The position numbers and the translations under genes were made by a program. Under the pieces are notes generated by a model. It worked only from the letters and a program-made list of their open reading frames with translations. It did not search any database and was not told the origin of the DNA. From Candidatus Saccharimonadota bacterium (lineage in GTDB: Bacteria; Patescibacteriota; Saccharimonadia; Saccharimonadales; JACOTW01), in contig JACOTW010000003.1 of the NCBI GenBank assembly GCA_016178135.1, positions 472 through 64,471 on the forward strand: a DNA stretch of 64,000 nt, given 5' to 3'. Below, piece after piece: positions 4,487 to 36,376 of this stretch (position 1 is its first letter; each line of letters starts with the position of its first letter).

Positions 4487-4646
4487 ACTGGACTTACGCA
4501 AAGCTCCCTCATCCCCAGACCAACTAACCTCGGCTACAAACAGTTTTTCCTCTCTCGATGTACCTTCAGGTACCTCTCCTTCAGATAAAACTGTTTTCGC
4601 TCGAGCTGATTCGCCCTGGGAACGGGGGATTTTGCATAAGTCCAGT
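4487..4646. repeat. MITE-like palindromic repeat, canonical copy (orientation B)
   Basis: ctggacttacgcaaagctccc..ccccagaccaac...ctctcgatgtaccttcaggtacctctccttcag...gctcgagctga..cctgggaacggg..ttttgcataagtccagt; terminal inverted repeats and central hairpin. Confidence 0.9.
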
Positions 4647-6206: not shown

Positions 6207-6365
6207 ACTCGACTTACGCAAAACTCCTCCATCCCCAGATCGAATTCTATCGGCTGCAAACAGTTTTTCTGTCCTCGATGTAGCCACAGCTACCTCTCCG
6301 CCAGATAAAACTGTTTTCGCTCGAGATAATTCACTCTGAGAACGGACGATTTTGCGTAAGTCGAG
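6207..6365. repeat. MITE-like palindromic repeat (orientation B, 'ctcgac/gatcgaattctatcggctgcaaacag' subfamily)
   Basis: actcgacttacgcaaaactcctccatccccagatcgaa...gatgtagccacagctacctc...ctgagaacggacgattttgcgtaagtcgagt. Confidence 0.9.
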
Positions 6366-6372
6366 TTAATAC

Positions 6373-7218
6373 TTATTTCATTAATAACAGCCCAATCAGG
6401 GCAATGAGACAACCAAGTATTTTGCGCTTTATGTGGTCTCGCTCGTTTAACCAGAGGGCTGCGGCCCCAAAAATAACCACAATCTTGAAAGTTGTAACTG
6501 CCGAAACAATACTCAAGTTGCCCACAATATTTAATAGCGTTACCCAGGAGATGGCTTGTAAAAACTTTAATCCGCCAGTCACCAGGGTATCTTTTCGGTT
6601 GTAAGTGGAATGGCTGCGAGTCAACAAGGTTATAAATCCCAACCCCAAGCATTGTGACCACCAGCTCAACAAGGTTCCTGCAGTAAAACCGGTTGTTTTC
6701 ATAAGTGCGCGCTCAGCGCTCAAAAGTATTCCAAGCAGAACTCCACTTGCCAACATCATTAAAAAGTATTTATCAAACTTGAAACGGCCAAGCTGGTGGT
6801 TTTTGGATACAATAATAACAGATGCAAGTAGTAGAGTCGTTCCAATGACTTGCAAAGGCGTTAGACCTTCACCTAGGAATAGCGTAGCAATGATAATGGT
6901 AACTGGCGTGTAGATATTGACAATTATGTTGGTCACAGTGGCATCTACGTGTCGCTGAGCAGTGTAGTTGGTAATAAAGTACGCTGAACCAGCACCCGCG
7001 CAAGTCAAAGCTAATAAAACCAAATGGGCCGTGTTGCCATGAATCCGAAAAGGCGAGAATAATGGCAACATCAAGCCGAGAACGGCAATTATAAGAGTGG
7101 TATGAAATGCAAAGGAAATTTGGTTGTCCTGTTCGCGTTTGGTTGCCAGCCAGCGCCTTTGCAACGGAGAAGCCGAAGCGGCAACAAAATAAAAAAGGTA
7201 GGCGAACAGAGTCATCAT
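6373..7218 (-). CDS. EamA/DMT-superfamily membrane transporter (10-TM)
   Basis: Two-repeat hydrophobic architecture; LFLGEGLTPLQVIGTTLLLASVII-type EamA helix motifs. Confidence 0.55.
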   Translation of the reverse strand: MMTLFAYLFYFVAASASPLQRRWLATKREQDNQISFAFHTTLIIAVLGLMLPLFSPFRIHGNTAHLVLLALTCAGAGSAYFITNYTAQRHVDATVTNIIVNIYTPVTIIIATLFLGEGLTPLQVIGTTLLLASVIIVSKNHQLGRFKFDKYFLMMLASGVLLGILLSAERALMKTTGFTAGTLLSWWSQCLGLGFITLLTRSHSTYNRKDTLVTGGLKFLQAISWVTLLNIVGNLSIVSAVTTFKIVVIFGAAALWLNERDHIKRKILGCLIALIGLLLMK

Positions 7219-7231
7219 ATGAGCTTAGTAT

Positions 7232-7391
7232 ACTGGACCTGTCGCAAAATCGCCCGTTCCCAGGCTAAATCAGCTCGAGCTGGGAGTAGTTTGACCGAAG
7301 GAGAGGTAGCCATAGCTACATCGAGAGAAGACAGACCACTATCAGTCGATACCAGTTGGTCTGGGGATGGGGGAGCTTTGCATAAGTCCAG
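7232..7391. repeat. MITE-like palindromic repeat (orientation A), abutting the start of the 6373-7218 gene
   Basis: actggacctgtcgcaaaatcgcccgttcccaggc...ctgaaggagaggtagccatagctacatcgagagaag...ctggggatgggggagctttgcataagtccag. Confidence 0.9.
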
Positions 7392-8069: not shown

Positions 8070-8404
8070 TGACTGGACCTGTCGCAAAGCTCCCCCATCC
8101 CCAGACCAACTAATCTCGGCTGGTAGCGGTCTGTCTTCTCTCGATGTAGCAAAGAGCTAATTAACATCTATCTATCGGCTAAAATCTTCAGGTCTGCCAC
8201 TTTTATTCTGTTTTTTGTTTTCGGTTCGTACCGATAGGTACGACCAAAAGCCAAGAAAACAGAATAAAAATCATGCCAGCTGCTAAAGATTCGCTATCAA
8301 CGGATAGATGTTAATTAGCTCTAAGGCTACCTCTCCTTCAGGCAAACCATTCCCAAATCGAGCTGATTTAGCCTGGGAACGGGCGATTTTGCGACAGGTC
8401 CAGT
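8070..8404. repeat. MITE-like repeat (orientation B) interrupted by a nested ~170-bp palindromic insertion in its central loop
   Basis: Left part 8070-8150 and right part 8321-8404 together reconstitute a canonical copy (…gatgtagc | … | aaggctacctctccttcag…). Confidence 0.85.
8151..8320. repeat. Nested palindromic element with perfect 18-bp terminal inverted repeats (agctaattaacatctatc / gatagatgttaattagct) and imperfect long internal hairpin
   Basis: Terminal IRs exact; internal ttttattctgtttt...aaaacagaataaaa arms. Confidence 0.75.
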
Positions 8405-8518: not shown

Positions 8519-10135
8519 ATGGCACGACTTCCCACTCCTGGTTCAGATAATGGTACATGGGGAGACATCCTTAATGGCTACCTCAGATCCTCCCATAATG
8601 AAGATGGTACTCTCAAGTCTGGGGTAGTTGGCGTAGGCCAACTACAAGACAACTCAGTTACCATCGCGAAACTAGACACCAGTACCAAAGCCTCACTAAT
8701 AAAGGCCGACAATGCCCTAAGTACCACAACAGCTGACGCGGATTACCTTAAGAAAATGGATGCTAGTACGACCTATGTTCCGCGGAACATCGACGGTGAG
8801 CTTGAGCTGATTTTGACCGGCAAGAACCGCACGACGTCAGCGGGTGACGAGGCGGTGCTACGCGGCAGTGATGTCGCCTCTGCGGTGCTGGACCTGTCGT
8901 CCAAGACCGGCACGGACGAAGCTCTCGGTTCGGCCTATGAGGCGGTTTCGTTCACCGTCCCTGCCGGTATCACTACGTTTGGTAGCGTGCGGCTGCGGAT
9001 CAAAAAGACCGGCACTATCGCCGACACTGGGACCTACGTGCAGGCAGCACTACACGCGGACAACGCTGGCAAGCCCGGCGCTGCGGTCGGTCTGAACAAC
9101 GCCGTGCAGCGGATCTATGGCGGACAGATCGAGACGACTTACACCGACTGCGAGTTCCTGCTAAGACTGACTGTTGCGACTCCCGGTACCCGTATGTGGG
9201 TTGTGTTGACCGTGGTGGTCAGTGGCGGCGGCACCCTCAGCATGGACAGCACTGTCGGAGTGGCATCGAGTGGCAATCTCGCCGAGAGTGCCGACGCGGT
9301 GACATGGACAAACAAAGACGTAGACGCCTACGTGCAGGTGTACGGGCAGAACGTTGCCGGAATCCAAGGTAACTCGACCAACTATGTAGCAATTCGTGGC
9401 GACTCAACCAACTACTTCGGCGGCTACTTCACTAGCAAACGCGGGACCGGCGTTTACGGCTTCTCGAACAACCACCGGGGTGTCGAGGGCAGTAGCGACC
9501 ATGGCCCGGCTGGGTATTTCGATAGCCGTGGCGGCTACGGTGTCGAGGCGGTTAGCACCAATAGCATCGCCGTCTACGGCAAGGCCGCTGGCGGCGGCGT
9601 GAAGGGTGAGAGTCCGTCGGCCTTCCCGGCGGTTCTGGGTGACAACATACTGAGCGGTCCGGGCGTGCAGGGCAAGACCGTCACGGGCATTGCCGGGCTG
9701 TTCGAGCAGTCGGGGTCTACGACCGCCGCCGTGTTGGTGTCAAAGCTCGGCACGGGCGCGACTGGCAACATGTGGGAGGGTCGCAACAGTGGCAGCACCC
9801 GTCGCGTGTCGTTCGACGTGAACGGGAATCTAAGCTTCGTTAGCAACGGCACGATCACCGCCGAGACTGGCTATCTACTACTCCAATGCTCGCAGACAAC
9901 TCAGGACATCTACTTCGGAGCAACGGGCGACACCGGCACGGTGCAGGCTCGCCGGTCAATAACGATGAGCGACGCGAAGAACCTTATTCTCGGCACTGGG
10001 ACCGGCACGAAAATCGGCACTGCGACGACGCAGAAGCTCGGCTTCTACAACGCGACGCCCATCGTGCAGCAGCCTAGGCCGACGGATGCGGCCAGTATCA
10101 TCACGCTTCTAACTACGCTCGGATTGTGCGCGTGA
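8519..10135 (+). CDS. Glycine-rich beta-repeat surface / phage-tail-fibre-like protein; chimeric base composition (low-GC 5' ~280 nt, GC-rich remainder)
   Basis: Repeated G-x-Y-G / YGxSxxxxGVEG units, no TM helices; abrupt rise in G+C from ~8800 through 10260 visible by eye. Confidence 0.45.
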   Translation: MARLPTPGSDNGTWGDILNGYLRSSHNEDGTLKSGVVGVGQLQDNSVTIAKLDTSTKASLIKADNALSTTTADADYLKKMDASTTYVPRNIDGELELILTGKNRTTSAGDEAVLRGSDVASAVLDLSSKTGTDEALGSAYEAVSFTVPAGITTFGSVRLRIKKTGTIADTGTYVQAALHADNAGKPGAAVGLNNAVQRIYGGQIETTYTDCEFLLRLTVATPGTRMWVVLTVVVSGGGTLSMDSTVGVASSGNLAESADAVTWTNKDVDAYVQVYGQNVAGIQGNSTNYVAIRGDSTNYFGGYFTSKRGTGVYGFSNNHRGVEGSSDHGPAGYFDSRGGYGVEAVSTNSIAVYGKAAGGGVKGESPSAFPAVLGDNILSGPGVQGKTVTGIAGLFEQSGSTTAAVLVSKLGTGATGNMWEGRNSGSTRRVSFDVNGNLSFVSNGTITAETGYLLLQCSQTTQDIYFGATGDTGTVQARRSITMSDAKNLILGTGTGTKIGTATTQKLGFYNATPIVQQPRPTDAASIITLLTTLGLCA

Positions 10136-10372
10136 ACACCGCTGCCCTCCTAGCGCTGATCGCCGAGCTGTACGACCGACTCATGGCATCAGAGGCTCGC
10201 GTCCGCGAGCTGGAAGAAAAACTCGTCGTTCGCTCCCAGGATGCCGACCAAACTAGCAACTAGTCGGCACCTATCCTCACTGTACGTTGCCGGAAAATTC
10301 CCACTAACAATGCGACAAAGCTGACACAAAAGTAGCGACACCCGTATACTTTCGTTTAGGTTACTAAACTAA

Positions 10373-10699
10373 ATGAAAGGAGTGTCGCTAATGCGTACAC
10401 TAACACAGTACGAAGTAGCTTGGAATATGCACCAGGCTGGCTCAACTATTGAGCAAATAACTAAGGTGGTAAGCAAGCACCGGGCCACTGTTTACCGTTG
10501 GTTAAAACAAATCAATCTGGCCGGCATCCGTAAGTTCCTTCGTCGTAAAGAAACCTGCAAGATCCGACGACCCAAAGCCCAAACTCCCGAGACAACCATC
10601 CAGAAGATCGTTGACATCCGTAATGAGTTCGGTTGGTGCGGAGCCAAGATACGCAAAGAACTAAAAGAAAACCACGGCATTAGTCTCGCCCTAAATTAA
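10373..10699 (+). mobile_element. Truncated IS481/IS3-type transposase N-terminal (HTH) fragment; IS remnant
   Basis: HRATVYRWLKQ...RRPKAQTPETTIQKIVDIRNEFGWCGAKIRKELKENHGISL resembles the HTH + 'RRPxxSPxxTP...I..LR....G...I...L' leader of IS481-family transposases; catalytic DDE part absent. Confidence 0.5.
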
Positions 10700-10888
10700 A
10701 AGGGTCTCACCCTTAACATCACCCTTAACAGGGAAGAATTTTGGTGATTAGTGCCAAATCAGTTAGAAGACAGTCTTCTACAGGAGTCTTTTAGTGTCAT
10801 ATATCAGCTAACTGATACTTTATTGTTTCTGTCTAGGAAACATTATTCATGAGCTAACGAATACTATTTGGGAAAGATTTTATATGAG

Positions 10889-10921
10889 CTAAGTCGTGTT
10901 GCTGTGAAAAAGTGCGAAAGT
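10889..10921 (+). promoter_or_regulatory. Recurring AAAAGTGCGAAAGTCCTATATAAT promoter-like box upstream of KH-protein gene
   Basis: Identical core to boxes at 705-733, 36399-36433, 45548-45583. Confidence 0.5.
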
Positions 10922-10966
10922 CCTATATAATAGTTTCTACAGCCAGTAATTGAGGAGTATCAAATC

Positions 10967-11375: not shown

Positions 11376-11520
11376 AGGACTTACGCACTTTTTCACACCA
11401 CCCCAGACCAATCCTACAGGGCTGTAAACTGTTTATCTACTGTCAGTGTAGCTATGGTTGCCACTCCAGAAGCTCAACAGTTTTCGCTCCAAGTAGGATT
11501 ACTCTGGAATTGGCGACAAA
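11376..11520. repeat. Degenerate MITE copy (variant subfamily, cf. 573-700) ending in a diverged promoter-box-like terminus
   Basis: taggacttacgcactttttcacaccaccccagaccaa...gtgtagctatggttgccactcc...cagttttcgctccaag...ctggaattggcgacaaagt. Confidence 0.6.
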
Positions 11521-11623
11521 GTACAAATAGTTACTACATTATCAGCCGCAACCTTCGGTTAAAAAACAAAAATAGTATGGGCTCATGCGAGCGATTCGTA
11601 AGAATCGGAGCCTTATGTGACAC

Positions 11624-11657
11624 AAAAACCCTGGTAACTCCAGGGTTTTTGTGTTTT
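11624..11657. terminator. Rho-independent terminator-like hairpin, palindromic with T-runs on both strands
   Basis: aaaaaccctgg-taact-ccagggttttt gtgtttt. Confidence 0.65.
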
Positions 11658-11668
11658 AATAGACCCTT

Positions 11669-12313
11669 ATGAAGATTCAGATCATCTCTTTGTTTCCAGA
11701 GATATTTAAACCAATTTTGAGTACTAGTATGCTTCGGAAAGCTCAGCAAAAGGGTCTAGTTGAGTTTTCTTATATTGATTTGCGGGATTACGGGATCGGA
11801 CCACGAAAAACCGTTGATGATACGCCTTACGGTGGTGGCGATGGCATGTTACTAATGATAGAACCCCTTGTCGGTGCGATTGAGGCGGCTAGGGTCAACG
11901 ACCCTGACGCTATGGTCATCTTACCTACTCCACGTGGCAAATTGTATAAGCAGTCTGATGCCAAGCGACTTGCTGCTAATGAAAAAGGCTTAATACTGGT
12001 TTGTCCCCGTTACGAAGGCTACGACGAGCGAGTTACTAATTGGGTTGACCAGCAATATTGCATAGGCAATTACATTCTAACTGGTGGTGAATTGCCGGCC
12101 ATGATAATCATTGATAGCGTGGTTCGTTTAATTCCTGGTGTACTGGGGGGAGAGTTTTCGGCTGAAGTTGAGTCTTTCCAGCAAGACGATAAAAGTATTG
12201 AATTTCCACAGTACACCCGCCCAGAGGATTTCAAGGGCATGAAGGTACCGAAAATCTTACTAAGCGGAAATCATACAAATATTCAGCAATGGCGGGACAA
12301 GCACGGAGTTTAA
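11669..12313 (+). CDS. trmD: tRNA (guanine37-N1)-methyltransferase
   Basis: MKIQIISLFPEIF..., GYDERV, SPOUT-fold TrmD motifs. Confidence 0.9.
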   Translation: MKIQIISLFPEIFKPILSTSMLRKAQQKGLVEFSYIDLRDYGIGPRKTVDDTPYGGGDGMLLMIEPLVGAIEAARVNDPDAMVILPTPRGKLYKQSDAKRLAANEKGLILVCPRYEGYDERVTNWVDQQYCIGNYILTGGELPAMIIIDSVVRLIPGVLGGEFSAEVESFQQDDKSIEFPQYTRPEDFKGMKVPKILLSGNHTNIQQWRDKHGV

Positions 12314-12314
12314 C

Positions 12315-12941
12315 ATGGGAGAAGTTATACAATTGCCACAACGACATGCGACCACCAAAGAATGGGGGGCTATCCAAGATGGTGCGAACATGGTTACTGA
12401 TTATCTCGAAGAACCCCGGATACAGTTAGTCTTGCCAAGTTCGGGGTATTCTATGCGACGTGTCAATGATATTGACGATCAACTTTATGCGCCAGGGCGT
12501 GAGGGAGTCAAGGATTTCGCCACGGGCTTTAGGGAGGTTATACGATTAGATCGTGATATATCTGTACGATCAGGAGTTGCATACGGCGCGTATTATGCGG
12601 GGAAATTGGTCCTGCCGAATGTTCTTATGCCTTTTGATCAGCCAAATGAGGAATTTGAAAATTTAGTGAAGGTTGTTTCACGGCAATGTCCAGAACCTGA
12701 CTTTCCGGTAATCGCCGAGGCTATAACAACAAGAGCGGCAGCAACACTTACCTTGCTGGCATTGTGGAGTAAGTTTAAATTCTCACAAGACGAACGCTCC
12801 TCATTAACGGGTCGTATATTGGCAGGCAAATTTCCTCCGGCAGAGCCAAACATAGCATCTGCTTTTAAGAATCGCCTGCCCGAAACAAAACTATTGCCTT
12901 TATTGAAAAAACCAATTCCTACTCGTCTCAATAGAGTATAA
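12315..12941 (+). CDS. Hypothetical protein (208 aa), translationally coupled to trmD
   Basis: Long ORF, 1-nt gap from trmD stop; no recognisable motif. Confidence 0.4.
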   Translation: MGEVIQLPQRHATTKEWGAIQDGANMVTDYLEEPRIQLVLPSSGYSMRRVNDIDDQLYAPGREGVKDFATGFREVIRLDRDISVRSGVAYGAYYAGKLVLPNVLMPFDQPNEEFENLVKVVSRQCPEPDFPVIAEAITTRAAATLTLLALWSKFKFSQDERSSLTGRILAGKFPPAEPNIASAFKNRLPETKLLPLLKKPIPTRLNRV

Positions 12942-12950
12942 TGATACTGT

Positions 12951-13111
12951 ACTGGACCTGTCGCAAAATCGCCCGTTCCCAGGGCAAATCAGCTCTAGTT
13001 TATAGTGGTTTGACTGAAGGAGAGGTAGCTTTAGCTACATCGAGAGAAGACAGACCGCTACCAGCCGAGATTAATTGGTCTGGGGATGGGGGAGCTTTGG
13101 GTAAGTCCAGT
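12951..13111. repeat. MITE-like palindromic repeat (orientation A)
   Basis: actggacctgtcgcaaaatcgcccgttcccagggcaaatcagctc...gtagctttagctac...ctggggatgggggagctttgggtaagtccagt. Confidence 0.9.
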
Positions 13112-13187
13112 GTAAGCTTAACAATTTTCGCTTCAAGCAGAATTACTCTGGAATTGGCGACAAAGTGTGAAGATAAAAGGGGGTAGC

Positions 13188-13577
13188 ATGTTTAGAATCA
13201 AACCGGTTTACGCGCATTGTGATTTGCCGTGCGGTGTTTATGATCCGGCGCAGGCTCGAATTGAGGCGCAGAGTGTATTGGCAATTCAGGAAAAATACGA
13301 AGGGTTGGATGCAGATAATAAAACGCGCGCTATAATTATCAAAGAACAGCGTGCCGAACTTGTCAAACATCATTTGTGGGTTTTATGGACTGATTATTTC
13401 AAGCCGGAGCATTTGGGTAAATATCCAGATCTACACGATAAATTTTGGAAAGCTACTAAGCAAGCCGGGGAATGTAAGCATCACAATGAACCGGTCGAGG
13501 GTAAAAAACTTTTGGAGATGATTGATGAAATTGCCGAAATTTTTTGGGCAACCAAAAAAACCGTTAATCATACGTAG
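13188..13577 (+). CDS. sodN: Nickel-containing superoxide dismutase precursor (NiSOD) with short N-terminal leader
   Basis: Leader MFRIKPVYA then HCDLPCGVYDPAQARIEAQ nickel-hook motif; rest closely resembles Streptomyces NiSOD (IKEQRAEL.KHH..VLW.DYFKP). Confidence 0.9.
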   Translation: MFRIKPVYAHCDLPCGVYDPAQARIEAQSVLAIQEKYEGLDADNKTRAIIIKEQRAELVKHHLWVLWTDYFKPEHLGKYPDLHDKFWKATKQAGECKHHNEPVEGKKLLEMIDEIAEIFWATKKTVNHT

Positions 13578-13851
13578 AGTGCATGGTCACAGTATGATTC
13601 CCGTCCTGCCTCCAGATACTCTGGTATGGGGGTGGATGTGGTTTAGGAGCCTAAAAACTGGCGATGTTGTGATGTTTGAACACGCCAATAAAGAAAAAAT
13701 TAAACGTATAGATCACTTTGAGGACGATAAACTGTACTTACTTGGCGATCACTTAGAAACTAGTACTGATAGCCGGCATTTTGGCTTGCTTGACAGAAGC
13801 GCGGTAAAAGCTAAAATATTTTGGCCACGTGTGGGACCGATCAACCGTTAG
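13522..13851 (+). CDS. sodX: NiSOD maturation peptidase SodX (S26 signal-peptidase family); start codon uncertain (overlaps sodN 3' end)
   Basis: GHSMIPVL catalytic-Ser motif, GDVVMF, small S26-like size, immediately downstream of sodN. Confidence 0.7.
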   Translation: MMKLPKFFGQPKKPLIIRRVHGHSMIPVLPPDTLVWGWMWFRSLKTGDVVMFEHANKEKIKRIDHFEDDKLYLLGDHLETSTDSRHFGLLDRSAVKAKIFWPRVGPINR

Positions 13852-13858
13852 TTTTGTT

Positions 13859-14015
13859 CGACTTACCCAAAGCTCCCCCATCCCCAGACCAACTAATCTC
13901 AAGCGGTAGCGGTCTGCCTTCTCTCGATGTAGCTATGGCTACCTCTCCTTCAGTCAAACCACTATCAGCTCGAGCTGATTTGCCTTGGGAGCGGATGATT
14001 TTGTGTTAGTCCAGT
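13859..14015. repeat. MITE-like palindromic repeat (orientation B; inverted relative to 12951-13111)
   Basis: cgacttacccaaagctcccccatccccagaccaactaatctc...gatgtagctatggctacctc...ccttgggagcggatgattttgtgttagtccagt. Confidence 0.9.
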
Positions 14016-15229
14016 TTAGTGTCTAGAAATACAGAATTTGCTAGATTATCAGCACATTGAGGACAACTTTCTTCCTCGTCATCTTCCGATAGCCAACGCT
14101 TAGTGGCGATAAGCCAGGGTTGAAAGTCATGATAAGCGATGAGATCAGCCAACCGCCGTAAAATCCAGCCAATTTTTCCATAAAGTCTAATATTTCCCCA
14201 GAGAACAGCGGCCCAATACTTGCCTACCGGAGTTATATAAATAGGTTTTTTGGCCACATAAGGCAGGGGTAATTTTTTGTCGGCTAGTCGTATTAAATTG
14301 TTGGTAACTGTTACGGCATCGTGCAGGGCGGTTTGTGCCATACCGGAATATGGAGTGTCGGCGCTATCACCTATCACATAGATACCTGGCTCGGCTTGCA
14401 AATATTGGTCAACACGAACCTTTTTATTGCTCGCTAGCTGAAACTGATTTTCGGTAAAGAATGGATTGTTGGCTACGCCAGCGGTCCAAATGACCGTGTG
14501 GCTACGGATGGGTTTACTATTGATTATTAACGAATCTATGGTTTGGGCTTGAGCAGGTGTTTTGAGGTATAGTTTGATGCCGAGTTTGCGGAGTCGCCGC
14601 GTAACCTTGGCAGACAAATCCTTTGGCAGGTTTGGCAATAGTCTTGGCGCGGCCTCGACAAGGTCAATATGAAATTCTCGAGGCTTCAGGCCATGCCTTA
14701 TGCATATTTGCTTTAAATAGGCTGGTAAAGCGCCGGCTAGTTCTACACCAGTTGGTCCGCCGCCAATAATTACGTAACTAAGATCTGGTCGGTGGTCATC
14801 GAACAATTGTTTGTGTAGATGATTTTTTATCTCCTCTGCCTCCTCTAACGATTTCATACTATAGGATAGTTCGCTAAGTCCATTGATTCCGAAATAATTT
14901 GTTACCAATCCGATGCTTAAAATCAAAGCATCATATGAAAAGATTTGTCCGTTTTTTGTTTTCAGGCTATGGATTTTTCGGTCAATCAATACGACTTTAT
15001 CGCGAACAATAGTGATGCGTTTTTCATTGAATACTTCCGCAAGCGGAATACTAGAAATTTTGCGCTTACCACCAGTAGCTGTGCGATAAAGAGCTGGATG
15101 GAAGTCAAAACTATCGCTATCGCTGATTAGGGTTATGTGAAAGCGACCATCTTCCGCAAGGCGCAGAGCGGATTTTACTCCGCCAAAACCTCCCCCAACT
15201 ATTACTATTTGATGTTTTTTACTGTTCAT
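14006..15229 (-). CDS. ndh: Type II NADH:quinone oxidoreductase (NDH-2); the longer ORF-track extension to 15469 reads through an upstream repeat
   Basis: MNSKKHQIVIVGGGFGG first dinucleotide-binding motif at the proposed start, second GGGPTGVE motif, NDH-2 length ~407 aa. Confidence 0.75.
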   Translation of the reverse strand: MNSKKHQIVIVGGGFGGVKSALRLAEDGRFHITLISDSDSFDFHPALYRTATGGKRKISSIPLAEVFNEKRITIVRDKVVLIDRKIHSLKTKNGQIFSYDALILSIGLVTNYFGINGLSELSYSMKSLEEAEEIKNHLHKQLFDDHRPDLSYVIIGGGPTGVELAGALPAYLKQICIRHGLKPREFHIDLVEAAPRLLPNLPKDLSAKVTRRLRKLGIKLYLKTPAQAQTIDSLIINSKPIRSHTVIWTAGVANNPFFTENQFQLASNKKVRVDQYLQAEPGIYVIGDSADTPYSGMAQTALHDAVTVTNNLIRLADKKLPLPYVAKKPIYITPVGKYWAAVLWGNIRLYGKIGWILRRLADLIAYHDFQPWLIATKRWLSEDDEEESCPQCADNLANSVFLDTKLD

Positions 15230-15304
15230 GATGCTTGTGGTTGATATATGATAAGTGTACAGGTTTGGTCTATGTTTTGCCAGCTTCTGTATGTAATTGG
15301 CATA

Positions 15305-15453
15305 TAGTCCCCGCAAAACAAATTCGTGGGTTTTTGAAGCAATGATCTTTGAGCCAAAAACTGACTTTTCCGAGAGAGACATATCCTTAGATACGTTGAA
15401 CGAGGAAAGGCGGTTTTGGGCCAAAGAGGGTGATTCGAAAAGGCGATATAATA
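15305..15453 (+). repeat. Second repeat family (~150 bp), near-identical copy at 60059-60205; encodes a shared stop-free N-terminal leader MIFEPKTDFS(E/Q)RDISLDTLNEERRFWAKEGDSK
   Basis: tagtccccgcaaaacaaattcgtgggtttttgaagcaatgatctttgagccaaaaactgacttttcc.agagagacatatccttagatacgttgaacgaggaaaggcggttttgggccaaagagggtgattcgaaaag almost identical at both loci. Confidence 0.85.
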
Positions 15454-15470
15454 ACGCAAACGACTCCATT

Positions 15471-16196
15471 ATGCGCGTCAGAAGTGTTAATTATGATGAT
15501 GGCCAGCCAAATGGTTTTATAGTTGAAATAATGCTTGAAAAGCAAGGTCAATCGTCACCAAAGTCAGAGGTGATTATTAATACTGGACATAGCGGACATA
15601 TTTTATTCAATGATATGAATAATCTGTTCGCAGCTAGGGAAATAGCTCGAGACTTATGGCTTGGCAATGGTTCTGAAATTGACCCTGAAATTAGCGACAT
15701 GGCTAGTTATTTATTGGTAGGTATTAACGATATCTTAAACGATCCTAAGATGGCATATGCTACAGATAAAAAGATTGATAATTACGAATATTTGGCAGAT
15801 TGTGCTATGCAATTAATGAATAATGAAGATCGTCCATCGCTTACAATATTATCTATCGAATACGTAAAGAAATTGTCAAACGGCGACATAATCACAATTA
15901 ACAAAAGCGAGGTTCTAGAGGACTATATGGAGCCGGACGACACTAATGACACTAATGACCGACCTGCATACCAGATTAGTTTAATTAAACATCTACATAA
16001 AACAAGGTATGATTACATGAAAAATATGGCTGGTAAGCGCTTGTTGTATGTAACAGGTACTGAACCTGTGAATTGGGGGGAAGATTTGTTCGAAAGCGGT
16101 GTTGCTGACACGGTATTATCTGATTTATATGATCCTACCCCAAGAACTCATGACGTTATGATGTTGTTGGGTGCCCTAAATGAGGTGTCGCTGTAG
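15471..16196 (+). CDS. Hypothetical acidic protein; true start uncertain (ORF is open from 15297 through the family-2 repeat)
   Basis: ORF continuity; no motif recognised. Confidence 0.35.
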   Translation: MRVRSVNYDDGQPNGFIVEIMLEKQGQSSPKSEVIINTGHSGHILFNDMNNLFAAREIARDLWLGNGSEIDPEISDMASYLLVGINDILNDPKMAYATDKKIDNYEYLADCAMQLMNNEDRPSLTILSIEYVKKLSNGDIITINKSEVLEDYMEPDDTNDTNDRPAYQISLIKHLHKTRYDYMKNMAGKRLLYVTGTEPVNWGEDLFESGVADTVLSDLYDPTPRTHDVMMLLGALNEVSL

Positions 16197-17904: not shown

Positions 17905-18816
17905 CTAGGGCAACCATTTATCAAGCGAAATCAAGATAGAAAACAATACATTGACTATTAAGGATAGGTTAAACATACGACGAGCCCAGGCGATATTATC
18001 AGTAGCCTTGAATCCAGCCAGCGCAAAACGTAGCCAAAAAGTACTTACTAGGGTCATAATTATTAGATAAGTATAGCCAGCGTAGCCGAATATCGTTAAT
18101 CCACTTGAAGCTACGAAAAATGCCAGAATATAATAAAATATTTGTTTTTTGGCCTCTAAAATACCATTTTTTACGGTTAAGATTGGCAATTTGGCTGCGA
18201 CATAATCCTCTCTGCGGTAGATACCAATAGAGTAAAAGTGCGGCATTTGCCAGCAAACTAAAATGACGAACAGTAAAAAAGCCCCCCCGTCGAAGCGGTT
18301 AGTAACGGCTACGTATCCGGCGACTAAAGGTGCAGCGCCTGCCAGGCTGCCTATAACTGTACTGTGTATGGAGCGTCGCTTACTAATACCATAAGCAATC
18401 AAATATACTACAACCCCAAAAATACCCATGACGACGGTTCGCCAATTAGTAAATGAAGCCAAAATAATAAACCCCGATAAGCCCAAAAAGGTAGCAAATA
18501 TTAGAGCATTAACCGCGGGAATTGCGCCTGTTACTAGTGGTCGTTTTTTTGTTCTGGACATTTTTTTGTCTACGTCGCGATCTATGTAATTGTTAAAGAC
18601 GCAGCTTGACGCTATAACCAACGCAGTACCGGACAGGACTGCGGCCAGTAGCCCCCAATTAACATTGCCGCGAGCGGCTAGTAAAAAGCCGGCCGTGGCG
18701 GTAATTAGGTTGCCCCGAACAATACCTGGTTTGGTTAATTCATAATAGGACTTAAAATCCATTTTCTTAATGACGGTATATTCCTTCCTCTTTTTGTATA
18801 AATTTTTCAGTTTCAT
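17905..18816 (-). CDS. ctaB: Protoheme IX farnesyltransferase (heme O synthase, UbiA family)
   Basis: NNYIDRDVDKKMSRTKKRPLVTG prenyltransferase motif; position downstream of cyoABCD. Confidence 0.85.
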   Translation of the reverse strand: MKLKNLYKKRKEYTVIKKMDFKSYYELTKPGIVRGNLITATAGFLLAARGNVNWGLLAAVLSGTALVIASSCVFNNYIDRDVDKKMSRTKKRPLVTGAIPAVNALIFATFLGLSGFIILASFTNWRTVVMGIFGVVVYLIAYGISKRRSIHSTVIGSLAGAAPLVAGYVAVTNRFDGGAFLLFVILVCWQMPHFYSIGIYRREDYVAAKLPILTVKNGILEAKKQIFYYILAFFVASSGLTIFGYAGYTYLIIMTLVSTFWLRFALAGFKATDNIAWARRMFNLSLIVNVLFSILISLDKWLP

Positions 18817-19129
18817 CCGGGGACATTTGTCTATAATTTAGGTTATTCATAATCCACAACGAACCAAATACTAGGACGATAACAACTAGCCCGGCGAATA
18901 AAAAGGCCATCAAATTCCAGCGTGGCTTGGATTCTTGACCAAGATTCAGGAAGAATATTAATTGTACGAATAATTGAATGATTGCTAGGAAGATTATAGC
19001 TGCCTTAATAACTCCATGGGTGCCAAAAGTGTGTGCCGATAGGACGTGGTGATTAACCAGCCAATAGGCCAATGAAGTTAGAACGATAGAAGCTATATAT
19101 CCGATTAAACTCGACTTACCCAAAATCAT
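18767..19129 (-). CDS. cyoD: Quinol oxidase subunit IV (CyoD/QoxD-like); proposed ATG lies inside a MITE copy, longer ORF to 19297 is MITE read-through
   Basis: ~110-aa 3-TM protein following cyoC; ATGATTTTGGGTAAGTCGAG start is the MITE terminus. Confidence 0.6.
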   Translation of the reverse strand: MILGKSSLIGYIASIVLTSLAYWLVNHHVLSAHTFGTHGVIKAAIIFLAIIQLFVQLIFFLNLGQESKPRWNLMAFLFAGLVVIVLVFGSLWIMNNLNYRQMSPDETEKFIQKEEGIYRH

Positions 19130-19263
19130 CCGCTCCCAGAGTGAATTATCTCGAGCGAAAACTGTTTTGTCTGAAGGAGAGGTAGCCCTAGTTGCATCGA
19201 CAGAAGAAAAACTGTTTGCAGCCGATAGAATTCGATCTGGGGATGAAGGAGTTTTGGGTAAGT
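19110..19263. repeat. MITE-like palindromic repeat (orientation A) overlapping the 5' end of cyoD
   Basis: actcgacttacccaaaatcatccgctcccagagtgaattatctcgagcgaaaactgtttt...gtagccctagttgc...gatctggggatgaaggagttttgggtaagtt. Confidence 0.85.
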
Positions 19264-19298
19264 TGATTTTGTAGGGCTTGGATGAACGGCTAGACATA

Positions 19299-19868
19299 CT
19301 AGAGAACTCCCATTAGATAAACCATTGTAAATATAAAAATCCAGACAATATCCAAAAAGTGCCAGAACATACTAAAGGCAGTTAAGCGTCTGTTGGTTGA
19401 TGATATTATGCCGCGTTGATAAATTTGTGCCATCAAAACAGTGGCCCAAATCAAGCCGATTGTAATGTGTAAGCCGTGTGTTCCTACCAGAGTAAAGAAG
19501 GCCGACAAAAAGCCACTACGCTGCCAGCCATATCCTTCGCTAATAAGTTTTGAAAATTCACTTATTTCTAACCCCAAAAAGGTTAAACCGAGTAAAGAGG
19601 TAGTCATCAGCCAAAGGAGTACTCTAGCACTATTACCACGTCGCGCCGCCAATATCATGAGGCTACTAGTGAAACTGCTGGTTAATAAGATTATTGTCTC
19701 GCTCAATACAAACGGCAATTTGAAAATATCATTTCCAGACGGCCCACCGTAAGTGTTATTTCTAAGGACTGCAAAAGTAGCGAACAGGCTGGCGAACAAC
19801 ACACAGTCAGTCATTAAGTAAATCCAAAATCCAAAAGTTGATCTATCATCTGACTTGTGCTGAATCAT
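19299..19868 (-). CDS. cyoC: Cytochrome bo3-type quinol oxidase subunit III
   Basis: 5-TM heme-copper oxidase subunit III pattern ([21 protein letters not shown]...). Confidence 0.85.
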
Positions 19869-21895
19869 GCGTGTTCCTTACTTTCGTTTATCATGATCTC
19901 AGCGACTGTTATGGTTAGCTCTGTATCGTCATCAGACAGGCGCTGGATCAGGCATATCAACCCGCCAATAAAGCCAACAGCCGCCAACCACCAGATATGC
20001 CAAATAATACTAAAACCAGCCACCAGACTAAAACCAGCCACAAACAAACCCGCACCGGTATTTTTAGGCAATTTAATATCTTTATATTGTGGTTTTTGAT
20101 CGTTGTCGGCAGTTTTTTTCATCGCCCAAAAGGCATCGCGTTCATTAACTTTGGGTATAACGGCAAAATTGTAGAATGGTGGTGGTGAAGTAGTTGACCA
20201 TTCCAGGGTACGACCATCCCACGGGTCGCCTGTTTTATCAAATTCACGTTTTCCAACCAGAGAATCCAGTTTGATTAAAATTGTTCGTCCAACTGAACGT
20301 AACAGTGGTTTATTCCAGGTGGTTTGCAAATCAAAGACACTGACAATAATTTGCAATATTTGCAGCCCTACGCCAATTATTATACACAGCCCGCCAATGG
20401 CCGACACGATAAATAAAGATTGCCAACCTAACGTTGCGTCATAATGATCAAGGCGCCTGGTGGCTCCCATTAAACCAAGAACGTAGAGTGGCATAAAGGC
20501 TAGTAGGAAGCCAATAATCCAAAACCAAAAAGCTAATCGTCCAACGCGTTCATTTAGAATAATTCCAGTAAACTTTGGAAACCAATAAGCCAGACCAGCA
20601 AAAAAACCAAACAAAACACCGCCGATAATCATATTATGAAAATGAGCTACCAGAAATAGACTATTATGAACCTGGAAATCAATGGCTGGCACGGACATCA
20701 AGACGCCAGTTGCGCCACCAATAGTAAAAGTCATCACGAAGCCTAAAAACCATAACATAGGCGTAGTAAATCGAATCCGACCACGGAACATAGTAAACAA
20801 CCAGTTAAATATCTTGACGCCAGTTGGAATGGCTATAATCATTGTCATAATGCCAAAGAACGCATTGACATCAGCTCCGGCACCCATGGTAAAGAAATGG
20901 TGAACCCAGACAATAAACGACAAAAAAGTAATCCCGCCTAGTGCTCCGACCATTGACTTATAACCAAATAATCTTTTACTGGAAAAAGTAGCCACAACCT
21001 CTGAAAATATACCAAACGCTGGCAAGACCAGAATATAAACTTCCGGATGTCCCCAGGCCCATATCAAATTAATATACATCATGGCATTACCGCCCCCGCC
21101 AGACGTGAAAAAATGCATGCCCAATAAGCGATCTAGTGATAGCATGGCAAGCGTGGCTGTTAAGATTGGAAAAGCAAATAGGACCAGCATCATACTGCCT
21201 AGGACGCTCCATATAAAGATGGGCATTTTCATTAGTGTCATGCCTGGCGCGCGTAGTTTGATGATCGTGACTAAGAAATTAATGCCAGACATCAAGCTAC
21301 CTATACCGGCAATTTGCAGGCTCCATATCCAATAATCCACACCTACACCTGGACTGAAGTCTATACCAGATAAAGGTGGGTAGGCCAGCCAGCCAGCGGC
21401 TGAAAATTCACCAACAACTAACGAAGAGTTTATTAGTAATATACCAGCAATGTATAACCAAAAACTAAGTGAATTGAGGAATGGAAAAGCTACATCACGA
21501 GAGCCAATTTGCAAGGGTACGATCAGGTTAAGTAGCCCAAACATAAAACCCATGGCAACAAAGAAGATCATTATTGTTCCGTGTGCCGAGAAAACTTGCT
21601 GAAAAGTATCAGTACTAATTATGCCATGCGATCCGCCCACCGATGTTGCTTGCTGAATTCGCATCATGGCCGCGTCAGCCGCACCACGGAGTAGCATGAG
21701 TGTAGCGGCAATGATATACATTACACCAATACGTTTCGGATCTAGTGATGTTAGCCATTCTCTCCAAAGCCATTTCCACTTTTTGAAATATGTTAGTAGT
21801 ACAATAATGGCCAAAATTGATAATAAGCCGCCGATTATACCGCCAGTTGTGATTGGATCATGTTTGAAGGCCTCTAAAGTTAATCTTCCAAACAT
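19865..21895 (-). CDS. cyoB: Cytochrome bo3-type quinol oxidase subunit I (heme-copper oxidase catalytic subunit)
   Basis: [30 protein letters not shown] and His ligand motifs of HCO subunit I. Confidence 0.95.
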
Positions 21896-21898
21896 TGC

Positions 21899-22792
21899 CT
21901 ACATACTCCCGTCATTTGATGAGTTTAATTTATGGGTATGTGGTCCAAATTTGTTTATAACTGATTGATATAGGTTGTCATTAAGTAACGAATATGACGT
22001 AACTGGGTTGTTTAGACTTGGTGTGGCCAAGTGGGCGTAGGCATTCATGTCTAAACGCTGCCTTGTTTGTTGGCTATCCGCTACCCACCTTTCAAAATCA
22101 TCCAATGAAGATGCTTGAGCGGTAAAATTCATGCTGGCGTGACCCATACCGCTTAAATTTGCTGAAACGCCTCGAAAAGTACCGATTTGAGTAGCCAAAA
22201 GATGCAATCTTGTTGACATCCCACTCATTGCGTATATTTGCCCACCTAATTCTGGAATCCAAAAAGAATTCATCGGAGCATCGGCAGTTAGTTCAAAATT
22301 TAGTGGTGTGTCTACCGGAAATCGGACTTGGTTGATAGTTGCTATGCCCTGTTCAGGATAAATAAATAGCCATTTCCACTGCAGGGCAACAACCTGAATA
22401 GTTAAAGGTTTTTTGTTAACCGATATGGCTCGCATTGGATCCAGGTCATGGGAGCTACGCCACGTTACAACTGATAGGATCAAAATAACAATCAGCGGAA
22501 TGCCCCACCAAGCCACCTCCAGATACCTGTTATTATCCCACTCCGGAGAATATTTGGCATTTTTGTTAGAAGCCCTGTAATGCCATGTAATGCCTATGGT
22601 GAGCAAGAAAACTGGCGCAATCACGAACAAGCTTAACAGAACAGCAAACATTATTAATTGGCGTTGTTCAAATGCGATAAAGCCTTTTGGGGATAGCACA
22701 GATATATTGTTGCCACCAAGCATAAAAACGCCACCAATGATAACGGTCATGGCTAATAATATAAAAACGGGCAGTTTATGACCCTGGCGCAT
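21899..22792 (-). CDS. cyoA: Cytochrome bo3-type quinol oxidase subunit II
   Basis: N-terminal 2-TM + cupredoxin-like domain, operon position upstream of cyoB. Confidence 0.85.
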   Translation of the reverse strand: MRQGHKLPVFILLAMTVIIGGVFMLGGNNISVLSPKGFIAFEQRQLIMFAVLLSLFVIAPVFLLTIGITWHYRASNKNAKYSPEWDNNRYLEVAWWGIPLIVILILSVVTWRSSHDLDPMRAISVNKKPLTIQVVALQWKWLFIYPEQGIATINQVRFPVDTPLNFELTADAPMNSFWIPELGGQIYAMSGMSTRLHLLATQIGTFRGVSANLSGMGHASMNFTAQASSLDDFERWVADSQQTRQRLDMNAYAHLATPSLNNPVTSYSLLNDNLYQSVINKFGPHTHKLNSSNDGSM

Positions 22793-22894: not shown

Positions 22895-24346
22895 ATGGAT
22901 TTTATTCGTGTAAGTCCGGTAAACTATCAATACATGAAAGTTACGATCGTTACATGCTACAAAGATCCTGATTATGTACGGGCTCGTACTTTGCGTGCGG
23001 GCTTGGCTGCCAATGCGGGAGTTGAGATGACTATCGTAAAAAACAAACATAAAAATATCTTGCGCTATCCAGAGACTATTATCCGACTAGTCATTGACCG
23101 CATTAACAATAGACCAGATGCTTATATCTTGACGTTTCGCGGTTACGAAATATTGCCTTTTTTACAGCTAATCGCTTGGTCAAAACCAATTATATTTGAT
23201 GAATTTATCAATCCGTTGGAATGGTTGGCGGAGCCACGGCACGAAAAATGGGTAGGGCTGATTCCTAAAAAGGCCCTGAAGAAGTTTTACGTCGCTTTGC
23301 TTGGGCGTTGTCGTTTTATCCTGGCTGATACTCAAGCGCACGCCGATTACAGCGTCAAATTAAGCGGTCAGCAAACAAATGTACTGGACTCACCCAAAAC
23401 CCCTCGTTCCCAGGGCGAATCAGCTCGAGCGAAAACAGTTTTATCTGAAGGAGAGGTAGCCTTAGCTACATCGAGAGAAGAAAAACCGTTTGTAGCCGAT
23501 AGAATTCGATCTGGGGATGAGGGAGTTTTCGACAGGTCCAGTAAATACTGGGCAATACCTGTCGGTACTGACGAGACGGTTTTTGATTATAAACTGGACT
23601 TACGCAAAATCGCCCGTTCCCAGGGCAAATCAGTTCGAGTTGGAAGTGGTTTTACCGAAGGAGAGGTAGCCATATCTACATTGAAAGAAGGCAGACCACT
23701 ACCAGCCGAGATTAGTTGGTCTGGGGATGGGGGAGTTTTGCGTAAGTCCAGTAAAGTTCGGGTTTTAGAAAAATACTTCCAAGTATTTTATTACGGCAAC
23801 ATGTTACCCCTTCATGGACTGGAATATGTTTTGGAAGCGGCTGTTTTATTGAAAAATAATCAAAACATAAAGTTTTTGATCGTTGGGGGCAACAGTAGAA
23901 CAGTTAAAATGATAAAAAACGCGCAACAACAAGGAGCAAAAATTAAGTATCAGAACTGGATTCCATTTGAAGAATTACCAAAAGTTATTGCCACTTCTAG
24001 TTTATGTTTAGGCGGGCCATTTGGTAAAACAAATCAAGCACAAAAAGTAATTACAGGTAAAACTTACCAGTTTTTAGCCAGCGGTGCGGCTACGTTGATT
24101 GGCAATACAGAAGCCAGTGCTTTGTTTATTGATAAGAAAAATAGCTTAGTTGTGCCGCTAGCCGATCCGCTAGCTCTAGCTACGACCATTGATTGGGCTT
24201 ATCAGCACCGGCAACAACTTCCGGCAATTGGTCAAGCCGGCAACAGGCTTTATCAGGAAAACTTTTCGGTGCGTATTATTACTGGCGAATTGTCAGCTAT
24301 TTTGACCAAACTTGCTTCTGGCATGAGTAATAATCGCCATCACTAA
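22895..24346 (+). CDS. GT-B glycosyltransferase (GT4-like) whose inter-domain region carries two in-frame MITE insertions
   Basis: C-terminal GT1/GT4-type domain (…FLASGAATLIGNTEAS…VPLADP…); ORF stays open across 23383-23752. Confidence 0.55.
   Translation: MDFIRVSPVNYQYMKVTIVTCYKDPDYVRARTLRAGLAANAGVEMTIVKNKHKNILRYPETIIRLVIDRINNRPDAYILTFRGYEILPFLQLIAWSKPIIFDEFINPLEWLAEPRHEKWVGLIPKKALKKFYVALLGRCRFILADTQAHADYSVKLSGQQTNVLDSPKTPRSQGESARAKTVLSEGEVALATSREEKPFVADRIRSGDEGVFDRSSKYWAIPVGTDETVFDYKLDLRKIARSQGKSVRVGSGFTEGEVAISTLKEGRPLPAEISWSGDGGVLRKSSKVRVLEKYFQVFYYGNMLPLHGLEYVLEAAVLLKNNQNIKFLIVGGNSRTVKMIKNAQQQGAKIKYQNWIPFEELPKVIATSSLCLGGPFGKTNQAQKVITGKTYQFLASGAATLIGNTEASALFIDKKNSLVVPLADPLALATTIDWAYQHRQQLPAIGQAGNRLYQENFSVRIITGELSAILTKLASGMSNNRHH
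23383..23542. repeat. MITE-like repeat (orientation A) inserted in-frame in the glycosyltransferase ORF
   Basis: actggactcacccaaaacccctcgttcccagggcgaatcagctcgagcgaaaacagtttt...gtagccttagctac...ctggggatgagggagttttcgacaggtccagt. Confidence 0.9.
23593..23752. repeat. MITE-like repeat (orientation A), second tandem in-frame copy in the same ORF
   Basis: actggacttacgcaaaatcgcccgttcccagggcaaatcagttcgag...gtagccatatctac...ctggggatgggggagttttgcgtaagtccagt. Confidence 0.9.
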
Positions 24347-28413: not shown

Positions 28414-28624
28414 TCATTCGACCTAAAAACTCCTCCATACCTAGACCGAATCCCATCGGTTATACCGGACTGACGAAAAACTCCCCCATCCCCAGACCAA
28501 CTAATCTCGGCTGATAGCGGTCTGTCTTCTCTCGATGTAGCTAAGGCTACCTCTCCTTCAGTCAAACCACTCCCAACTCGAGCTGATTTGCCCTGGGAAC
28601 GGGCGATTTTGCGACAGGTCCAGT
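28414..28624. repeat. Partial MITE fragment (28414-28469) followed by full MITE-like copy (orientation B, 28470-28624)
   Basis: …aaaaactcccccatccccagaccaactaatctcggctgatagcggtctg…gatgtagctaaggctacctc…cctgggaacgggcgattttgcgacaggtccagt. Confidence 0.9.
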
Positions 28625-28686
28625 ATAAACAATTTATCTTACATGGAAACTATTATTCCCCATTGTCGAAGATTTTAACAGATTAG

Positions 28687-29908: not shown

Positions 29909-30121
29909 CTACTCACCACCTTTTTGGACATAACCCTTCACAAACTCTTCAGCATTTTCTTCTAGTACTTCATCAATCTCATCCAGTAAACCGTCAAGTT
30001 CTTCTTTAATACCGGCACCCTTTGTGGCTGTTTCACCAACGCTATGCACTTGGTCTTCATTGGTTTCCTCTTCTCTACGGCGCTCTGGTGTTGGTACTCG
30101 TTTTTGTATACGTTCTGCCAT
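29909..30121 (-). CDS. pup: Prokaryotic ubiquitin-like protein Pup homolog (70 aa) ending in GGE
   Basis: C-terminal LLDEIDEVLEENAEEFVKGYVQKGGE aligns almost residue-for-residue with mycobacterial Pup (LLDEIDDVLEENAEDFVRAYVQKGGQ); strong RBS GGGAGG. Confidence 0.8.
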   Translation of the reverse strand: MAERIQKRVPTPERRREEETNEDQVHSVGETATKGAGIKEELDGLLDEIDEVLEENAEEFVKGYVQKGGE

Positions 30122-31345: not shown

Positions 31346-31457
31346 ACTGGATTTGTCGCAAAATCGCTTGTTCCCAGAGCGAAAGTTCTATTTTATCTGA
31401 AGGTACATCGACCTGTTTGTCAGTTTGGGGATGATGGAATTTTGCGACAGGTCCAGT
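31346..31457. repeat. Shortened (~112 bp) MITE derivative (orientation A)
   Basis: actggatttgtcgcaaaatcgcttgttcccagagcgaaagttc...gtttggggatgatggaattttgcgacaggtccagt. Confidence 0.8.
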
Positions 31458-36258: not shown

Positions 36259-36295
36259 TCGGTTGCTATATAGAACTTTCGCACTTTTACGTCGC

Positions 36296-36376
36296 AACAG
36301 ACCACAGCTGACTGACTGCAAACTGTCTGTATTCTCTCGATGTACCTACGGGTACCCTTCAAGAATCCAAACAGTT
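36296..36376. repeat. Degenerate central fragment of the MITE family
   Basis: gctgcaaactgtctgtattctctcgatgtacctacgggtacccttcaagaatccaaacagttttcgt. Confidence 0.6.

Follow-up and report, generated by a model that had tools for sequence, protein, structure and literature searches.

The stretch of DNA analysed here, referred to as the window, comprises 64,000 nucleotides of contig JACOTW010000003.1 of a Candidatus Saccharimonadota bacterium (GCA_016178135.1), with a G+C content of 43%. It contains sodN, the gene for a nickel superoxide dismutase (NiSOD) precursor, followed by sodX, which encodes its S26-type maturation peptidase, and the convergent gene ndh2. sodN and sodX are located at the tail of a ribosome-biogenesis gene string (rpsP-KH-trmD). 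They are bracketed by two copies, A and B, of a miniature inverted-repeat transposable element (MITE), and the original prediction made from this sequence had proposed that such a composite-transposon-like arrangement could explain how the module was acquired or moved. We used a scan for SodN with one genome per species, which gave 564 SodN-encoding stretches; the comparisons with related loci are based on the best 80 of these, namely 71 loci of Saccharibacteria or other members of the Candidate Phyla Radiation (CPR) and nine actinobacterial loci. The positions of the features are presented in Table 1.

Based on the translation of its open reading frame (ORF), SodN starts with a nine-residue leader, MFRIKPVYA, followed by HCDLPCGVYDPAQA. 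Residues 10-18 (HCDLPCGVY) fit the Ni-hook motif H-C-x-x-P-C-G-x-Y, which is found in all 81 SodN sequences compared. A look-up for an identical protein gave no record. The protein matches Sod_Ni of Pfam (PF09055; 4e-44, 150.6 bits with a cut-off of 25) and the sodN equivalog TIGR02753 of NCBIfam (157.5 bits with a cut-off of 90), and the mature Streptomyces NiSOD chains (PDB 1t6u, 1q0d and others) align with it from H10 onwards (E ~4e-40). Since those mature chains start at H10, residues 1-9 represent a leader which needs to be removed to expose the nickel hook; the predicted cleavage site lies directly before His1 of the mature protein.

Concerning sodX, the ORF opens at a TTG at 13522, the first ATG is found at 13525 and the stop at 13851. 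It overlaps the 3' end of sodN by 53 nt, and this overlap is kept in relatives. SodX carries RRVHGHSMIPVL (GHSMIPVL) and IKRI, which correspond to the Ser and Lys motifs known from S24/S26 peptidases; in an alignment of the window protein with five relatives the GxSM...KR dyad motifs (GHSM, IKRI) are conserved. It matches the Pfam domains Peptidase_S26 (38.9 bits, cut-off 22.9) and Peptidase_S24. Within NCBIfam it scores highest against the model of the NiSOD maturation protease (TIGR02754), covering profile positions 2-88 of 90 at a score that stays below the cut-off of that family (50.7 vs 63.25 bits). The original prediction had named a NiSOD whose leader and Ni hook call for N-terminal processing, followed by an S26-type peptidase with GHSMIPVL, and both identifications agree with these matches, including the PDB alignment for SodN.

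The maturation and action of NiSOD are established knowledge, carried over here by inference to the proteins of the window. SodN would be translated with its nine-residue leader, SodX would act as a Ser/Lys peptidase and cut between Ala9 and His10, and the new N-terminal hook would bind nickel through the His1 amine, Cys2 and Cys6, so that superoxide could be dismutated. A complete cyoE-cyoD-cyoC-cyoB-cyoA cluster is found at 17905-22792 (-), near the genes of NDH-2, an FAD-linked oxidase and the NiSOD; NiSOD, NDH-2 and the cyo oxidase may together form an oxygen-tolerance kit.

The module resembles the sodN/sodX system of Streptomyces (1T6U, 1Q0D) in the Ni hook itself, in the predicted removal of the leader directly before His1, in the mature region, which aligns at E = 4e-40, and in an adjacent S26-type peptidase with Ser/Lys motifs. 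It differs in its leader of only nine residues and in a SodX below the TIGR02754 cut-off. The gene arrangement is also different: in the actinobacterial loci examined sodX lies upstream of sodN on the opposite strand, in divergent orientation, whereas in the window it is co-directional and overlaps sodN. The description of the arrangement as being like that of Streptomyces thus does not hold.

The G+C content at third codon positions (GC3) is 0.40 for sodN and 0.41 for sodX, with a window mean of 0.408 +/- 0.068. A comparison of codon usage had been put forward as a check; by GC3 the composition of both genes is native, being typical for the host genome.

The two bracketing copies are in opposite orientation, as had been claimed, and the positions given for them were right to within one or two bases. 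Copy A starts 9 bp past the stop of an ORF of 208 aa, ends 76 bp 5' of the ATG of sodN and is in sense orientation relative to sodN. Copy B occupies the entire 154-bp intergenic space between sodX and ndh2, and ndh2 takes its final ~3 codons and its stop from it; the remaining C-terminus of Ndh2 aligns with that of a relative (L017). The inner terminal inverted repeat (TIR) of copy B is degenerate (TTCGAC). The inverted-repeat arms (12964-13107 and 13860-14003) comprise 144 nt, are 90% complementary and lie 752 nt apart. Copy A is 92% identical to the copy at 28464-28625 and 87-88% identical to copy B; as it is closer to the former, the arms are not a matched pair. A conversion of copy B from copy A was considered and is not supported, their identity being 87.9%; no donor above 90% was found in the window. 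On the + strand the outer flanks are TA to the left of copy A and TT to the right of copy B; these flanks may have decayed. Directly 5' of sodN, 53 bp (13114-13166) are left of an older MITE that belongs to a sister subfamily; they share 90.6% identity with 11470-11522, the terminal part of the degenerate copy that separates the KH gene from trmD. ORFs of 81 aa (12941-13186) and 62 aa (13821-14009) run through copies A and B, respectively, and the former is called as a gene in public annotations (L085, L087); both are by-products of open frames of the MITE.

The gene order around sodN is widely shared in the non-actinobacterial loci. trmD is located upstream of sodN on the same strand in 64 of the 71, the full order S16-KH-trmD-sodN is found in 58, and sodX lies directly downstream of sodN in the same direction in 67. 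Five loci (L017, L040, L045, L056 and L060) also contain ndh2 (-) and the FAD-linked oxidase after sodX, as in the window. The junctions in the relatives are short: in L017 trmD and sodN are 29 bp apart and sodX and ndh2 14 bp, in L040 the ORFs of sodX and ndh2 overlap by 4 bp, and overall the sodX-ndh2 junction ranges from -14 to +14 bp. These short junctions fall exactly at the positions of the MITEs of the window, and searches of 870 kb of related loci with blastn and nhmmer gave no copy of the MITE family. The segment has the same orientation (trmD+ sodN+ sodX+ ndh2-) as in the MITE-free relatives, so the arms have not flipped it, and an inversion of the segment between them was rejected for this reason.

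A similar picture is obtained from the SodN sequences. In a neighbour-joining tree the SodN of the window is placed deep within the Saccharibacteria sequences, and the actinobacterial SodN form a separate cluster; the nesting within Actinobacteria that the original prediction had raised as a check is not what the tree gives. NiSOD had been described there as a hallmark of Actinobacteria, cyanobacteria and some marine taxa. As a statement about this lineage it needs to be amended: the enzyme is present in hundreds of Saccharibacteria genomes and is not foreign to the group.

Taken together, we consider it very probable that sodN-sodX is a resident, vertically inherited module and that both MITEs are late, separate insertions. 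Copy A would have landed between the 208-aa ORF and sodN, beside the older 53-bp remnant, and copy B in the very short spacer between sodX and ndh2, at the stop codon of the latter. Several observations weigh against this reading. The locus with the most similar SodN (L002, 87% identity) has sodN-sodX among unrelated neighbours, and the SodX encoded there has diverged far more (35%); the different context of this pair implies that the module is likely to have been relocated or exchanged within the phylum, at least occasionally. The SodN identity between Saccharibacteria and Acidimicrobiia or other Actinobacteria is 68-74%, which makes an old transfer between the phyla likely. The tree is based on ~125 residues and carries no support values. 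The close strains (GCA_040960765.1 and GCA_040960095.1) gave no empty site for copy A or copy B, so the order of events is drawn from the comparison at species level only. Finally, neither an intact transposase nor an autonomous parent element was found in the window.

A regulatory role is an unlikely alternative, according to which the copies were inserted independently and later co-opted, A as a structured 5' leader or processing site of the sodN-sodX mRNA and B as a bidirectional hairpin terminator or stabiliser between sodX and ndh2. Copy A is sense-oriented and its 160-nt RNA hairpin is stable (-72.2 kcal/mol, z = -7.2), copy B is in sense orientation relative to ndh2, and 11 of ~16 copies are sense to the nearest transcript. 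The hairpin is also conserved in the family, with 37 conserved pairs across 21 copies, nine of them with compensatory changes, and MITE hairpins in such roles are known (review PMC10969869). However, a scan around the module gave no promoter-like or T-tract terminator feature beyond chance in or beside the copies, the + strand of copy B is no more stably folded than shuffled sequence (z = -1.9), and compensatory changes in the TIRs are also expected from recognition by a transposase. The same element is found inside coding regions and in antisense orientation elsewhere, and the relatives function without it.

The proposal that sodN-sodX was inserted or moved as a unit, with the two inverted MITEs serving as outer ends for a transposase acting in trans, appears very improbable. 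In its favour, exactly two genes are enclosed by a pair of MITEs from a single family whose outer TIRs are intact, the same element being present on both sides of the cargo as in a composite transposon. There are precedents for the mobilisation of MITE-flanked DNA (review PMC10969869), an IS630-like transposase fragment lies 2.3 kb upstream of the module, and the pair in L002 is in another context. On the other hand, the cargo shows no insertion polymorphism: it occupies the same site, MITE-free, in 64 of the 71 relatives, the identical order extending to the ndh2 side in five loci, and the close strains share the layout of the window. No target-site duplication bounds the unit, the flanks being TA and TT, possibly after decay. 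With an identity of only 87-88%, the two arms differ more from each other than copy A does from a copy elsewhere, and in the sister strain they even fall into different subfamilies. The composition of the genes is native. Tn5-type composite transposons and MITE-mobilised integrons are alike in having two inverted copies around a cargo, but the cargo of the window is found at its ancestral locus, between unmatched arms, with no bounding duplication and with no transposase identified in the window.

The bracketing itself is not significant. The window contains six adjacent inverted MITE pairs with inner gaps of 630-1424 bp, and random placement gives 2.6-3.2 such pairs, with a probability of 0.95 for at least one. 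Because such pairs arise by chance at this density of MITEs, the inverted layout and the gap of ~750 bp are what the number of copies leads one to expect. Acquisition or movement in the manner of a composite transposon is thus contradicted by the MITE-free gene order in relatives, the nested SodN and the native composition; vertical inheritance with the same neighbours and no repeats in relatives, which the original prediction had itself named as incompatible with its proposal, is what we found. In a complete CPR chromosome (L062, OY970378.1) the entire stretch S16-KH-trmD-sodN-sodX is enclosed by an inverted repeat of 60 bp (474-533 and 6785-6844, 88% identity), which is unrelated to the MITE.

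An assembly artefact, in which a short-read assembler threaded the repeats into a repeat-rich metagenome bin, is the least probable explanation: two Logan contigs (L086, L088) end 30 bp into copy A, and two assemblies in which the termini of copy B are identical disagree in its interior, but A and B are found at the same positions in independent assemblies (GCA_040960765.1 and GCA_040960095.1), the unique flanks are continuous, and the frame of ndh2 ends inside copy B in a way that is consistent with its homologues.

Among the close strains, GCA_040960765.1 has a 654-kb contig that agrees with the window at 99.9% identity across most of 1.9-34 kb and contains both MITE copies; copy A is also present in GCA_040960095.1. 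In GCA_040960765.1 copy B has the same odd termini (TTCGAC..., ...GTGTTAGTCCAGT) around an interior of subfamily 2, and is 77.7% identical to copy A. The copy B interiors of the window (13872-13996) and of L083 (785-940) show ~35 differences in 125 bp, which may reflect either conversion between MITE copies or a chimeric or mis-threaded assembly. Under either reading, the locus does not stably have two inverted copies that match. The ndh2 region (14022-15442) diverges from the sister strain by ~1.5%, vs ~0.12% elsewhere, and is bounded by copy B and by an indel of 181 bp at 15442/15443, a pattern resembling a recombination tract edged by repeats.

Table 1. Features of the window, in order of position
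Feature	Position	Strand	Location or description	Evidence
MITE copy	4487-4646	-	intergenic, nusB / NUDIX	nhmmer 8e-50
MITE copy	6207-6366	-	just 3' of EamA gene	nhmmer 3.4e-37
MITE copy	7231-7391	+	upstream of rpsP	nhmmer 4.3e-52
MITE copy	8072-8404	-	split by second MITE type at 8150-8318, TIR TAGAGCTAATTAACATCTATC	nhmmer, two halves
Degenerate MITE, sister subfamily	11377-11525	-	between KH gene and trmD	nhmmer 1.6e-9
trmD	11669-12313	+	conserved upstream neighbour of sodN in Saccharibacteria	Pfam tRNA_m1G_MT 4e-52
208-aa ORF	12315-12941	+	between trmD and sodN, lineage-specific, no recognisable family	
MITE copy A (subfamily 1)	12950-13111	+		nhmmer 1.5e-54
Remnant of older MITE, sister subfamily	13114-13166	-	directly 5' of sodN	
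sodN	13188-13577	+	nickel superoxide dismutase precursor, 129 aa	Pfam, TIGR02753, PDB alignment
sodX	13525-13851	+	S26-type NiSOD maturation peptidase, 108 aa from ATG	Pfam S26/S24, best NCBIfam TIGR02754
MITE copy B	13858-14015	-		nhmmer 3.9e-51
ndh2	14006-15226	-	type II NADH dehydrogenase-like flavoprotein, convergent with sodX	Pfam Pyr_redox_2 5e-39
MITE copy	19109-19264	+	N-terminal extension of cyoD ORF (18767-19297, -)	nhmmer 9e-40
MITE copy	23382-23542	+	GT1 glycosyltransferase, in-frame, first insert (54 aa)	
MITE copy	23593-23752	+	GT1 glycosyltransferase, in-frame, second insert (53 aa)	
MITE copy	24662-24820	-	in-frame, middle of LPG_synthase_TM-family membrane protein (ORF 24293-25486, -)	
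MITE copy	25316-25475	-	N-terminus of same LPG_synthase_TM-family ORF (24293-25486)	
MITE copy	26106-26265	+	within 609-aa DUF2142-like membrane-protein ORF (25538-27367, +)	
MITE copy	28464-28625	-	between tRNA-Gln and AAA ATPase gene	closest to copy A (92%)
MITE copy	31346-31457	+	internal deletion; upstream of ZIP transporter gene	
MITE copy	45311-45452	+	diverged interior; upstream of glutaredoxin gene	
MITE copy	60942-61103	-		nhmmer 5.7e-41

The repeat of ~160 bp is a MITE that is not represented in Rfam: it has the TIR ACTGGACnnnCGCAAAATC and no transposase, and its termini, TIRs of 17-19 bp, read ACTGGAC(C)TnnCGCAAAATC ... GATTTTGCGnnAGTCCAGT. The window contains 17 matches to the TIR, with 1.8 expected. 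The element is palindromic over its full length, forming one long hairpin, and its copies fall into two main subfamilies. A profile search with nhmmer gave ~17 copies in the window, 15 of them within the first 32 kb, and another contig, apparently of the same assembly (L089), contains ~11 copies in 20 kb; in the DNA sampled the density is about one copy per 2-4 kb. L089 was considered as a second genome with the MITE and rejected, its HY003_ locus tags indicating that it is probably the same assembly as the window. A search of the whole window against Rfam gave tRNA-Gln only, and the MITE matches no described RNA family. No paper on MITEs in Saccharibacteria was found in the collection of literature searched.

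Of 32 element ends, 15 have TA beside CTGGAC/GTCCAG, and four of the 16 copies examined (23382, 25316, 28464 and 45311) have it on either side. This suggests, but does not prove, a TA duplication and mobilisation in trans by a transposase of the IS630/Tc1-mariner type. The transposase content of the window is a truncated IS630-like helix-turn-helix (HTH) fragment of 108 aa (10373-10699). This ORF is carried by a segment of 612 bp (10286-10897), which is present in the window and in the Logan contig L088 and is replaced by 15 bp in GCA_040960765.1 and L086; the segment is followed by a MITE-like right end (10903-10925), which matches the left end of the copy at 11377. The segment was considered as a parent of the MITE and rejected, having right-end-like sequence only and no left end. 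A metagenome scan with the MITE core (a 30-mer with six N) gave two contigs only, one with a true family member (Hainich groundwater) and one with a sister element, and no autonomous parent. The MITE-encoded peptide, used as a query, retrieved only eight short ORFs, each located in the same genome or on a tiny contig, and hence nothing that would point to the family in an independent lineage. The MITE would have proliferated throughout the genome by mobilisation in trans, and the copies around sodN-sodX would be passengers.

Other repeats are associated with the family. A second palindromic element (~170 bp, TIR TAGARCTAATTAACATCTATC) is nested at 8150-8318 in the central loop of a copy of the first MITE. 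In GCA_040960765.1 it is also found in the loop of the copy upstream of rpsP (L085, 5423-5597), which is uninterrupted in the window (7231-7391); this suggests a loop-specific target and recent mobility, or a difference between assemblies. A sister repeat, with copies at 27034-27190, 616-726 and 36277-36362, shares only the central part of the MITE; the first of these copies is 84.7% identical to part of a metagenome contig (Ga0209541_10059603, L081), in which it lies beside ribosomal protein genes. A weak MITE fragment is present at 15357-15422.

Several copies are located within genes (Table 1). The GT1 glycosyltransferase (22895-24346, +) has 483 aa and is annotated as intact by NCBI. Its two inserts are exactly the MITE copies and are absent from all seven aligned homologues of ~350-360 aa; the 119 other homologues listed are mostly 350-390 aa long. 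Between the inserts the conserved motif KxxxxPVxTDExxF is found with its frame kept, and the insert of 54 codons (162 nt) corresponds to 160 nt plus a 2-nt duplication. In the LPG_synthase_TM-family protein a single Pfam match spans the insert at 24662-24820, and in the cyoD ORF COX4_pro (Pfam) starts at residue 64, after the MITE-encoded part. One frame of the MITE is open in 14 of 15 full-length copies, and the encoded peptide includes ...SEGEVALATSREE....

In-frame insertion in genes has been described for the Rickettsia palindromic elements (RPEs; review PMC10969869). The MITE is like these in being palindromic, ~150-160 bp long and hairpin-forming, with many intergenic and intragenic copies and an open frame which adds a conserved peptide without breaking the host ORF. 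It is unlike them in its host, a CPR episymbiont, and in its clear 17-19-bp TIRs, often flanked by TA, which suggest an IS630/Tc1-mariner ancestry; the likeness drawn here is one of behaviour. We lean slightly towards viewing the MITE as a frame-preserving palindromic element which makes up several percent of a ~1-Mb genome, is tolerated in operons and proteins in the manner of RPEs and appears to exchange interiors between its copies. If the host proteins are still functional, it would be an RPE-like protein-remodelling element in the CPR, and it could also be a source of new hairpin leaders or terminators, including those around sodN-sodX.

Concerning the neighbourhood of the module, the 208-aa ORF gave no Pfam or PHROG match and no tblastn match among the 80 related loci, and is identical in close strains. 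It occupies the trmD/sodN junction, compact in relatives, just as an ORF of 299 aa (15297-16196, +) is located at the junction of ndh2 and the FAD oxidase, also compact in relatives. In relatives rpsP and the KH gene are direct neighbours; in the window an ORF of 538 aa (8519-10135, +) lies between them, with a MITE and the IS630-like fragment on its two sides. With a G+C content of 0.59 and a GC3 of 0.69 vs 43% G+C for the genome, it is the real compositional outlier of the neighbourhood. It has a single other full-length homologue (74% identity), many matches covering only the N-terminal ~40 residues; neither the 299-aa nor the 538-aa ORF has a Pfam or PHROG match. Just 5' of trmD, at 11625-11660, a perfect hairpin rich in G+C precedes a run of T (aaaaaccctggtaactccagggtttttgtgtttt), which would be a terminator-like signal within the otherwise conserved KH-trmD string.

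Two further genes lie away from the module. Pup, the prokaryotic ubiquitin-like protein, is a family typical of Actinobacteria; a called gene of 70 aa at ~29909-30121 (-), corresponding to L083 17015-17227, has a precomputed Pfam match to it. In L089 (12883-15066) an intein that carries a LAGLIDADG endonuclease domain interrupts a tyrosine recombinase of 727 aa (Phage_integrase).

NiSOD has already been reported in soil Saccharibacteria (T. rhizospherense; Starr et al. 2018, PMC6031116). That organism belongs to the same phylum and has the same kit of NiSOD, NDH-2, cytochrome bo3 oxidase and heme O synthase; the report gives gene presence only, and the conserved trmD-sodN-sodX placement and the MITE insertions are absent from it. 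The NiSOD and its protease are thus a normal, conserved and already known part of Saccharibacteria of aerobic environments. With one MITE every few kb, short operons will often look bracketed, and such layouts should be read with caution. As a by-product, the analysis brings out a burst of MITEs in a streamlined CPR genome, with in-frame copies in a glycosyltransferase, a flippase-like protein and the cyoD ORF and with differences in copy interiors at strain level. Such a burst lends itself well to a study of how mobile DNA is tolerated, and how peptide segments are gained, in reduced genomes.

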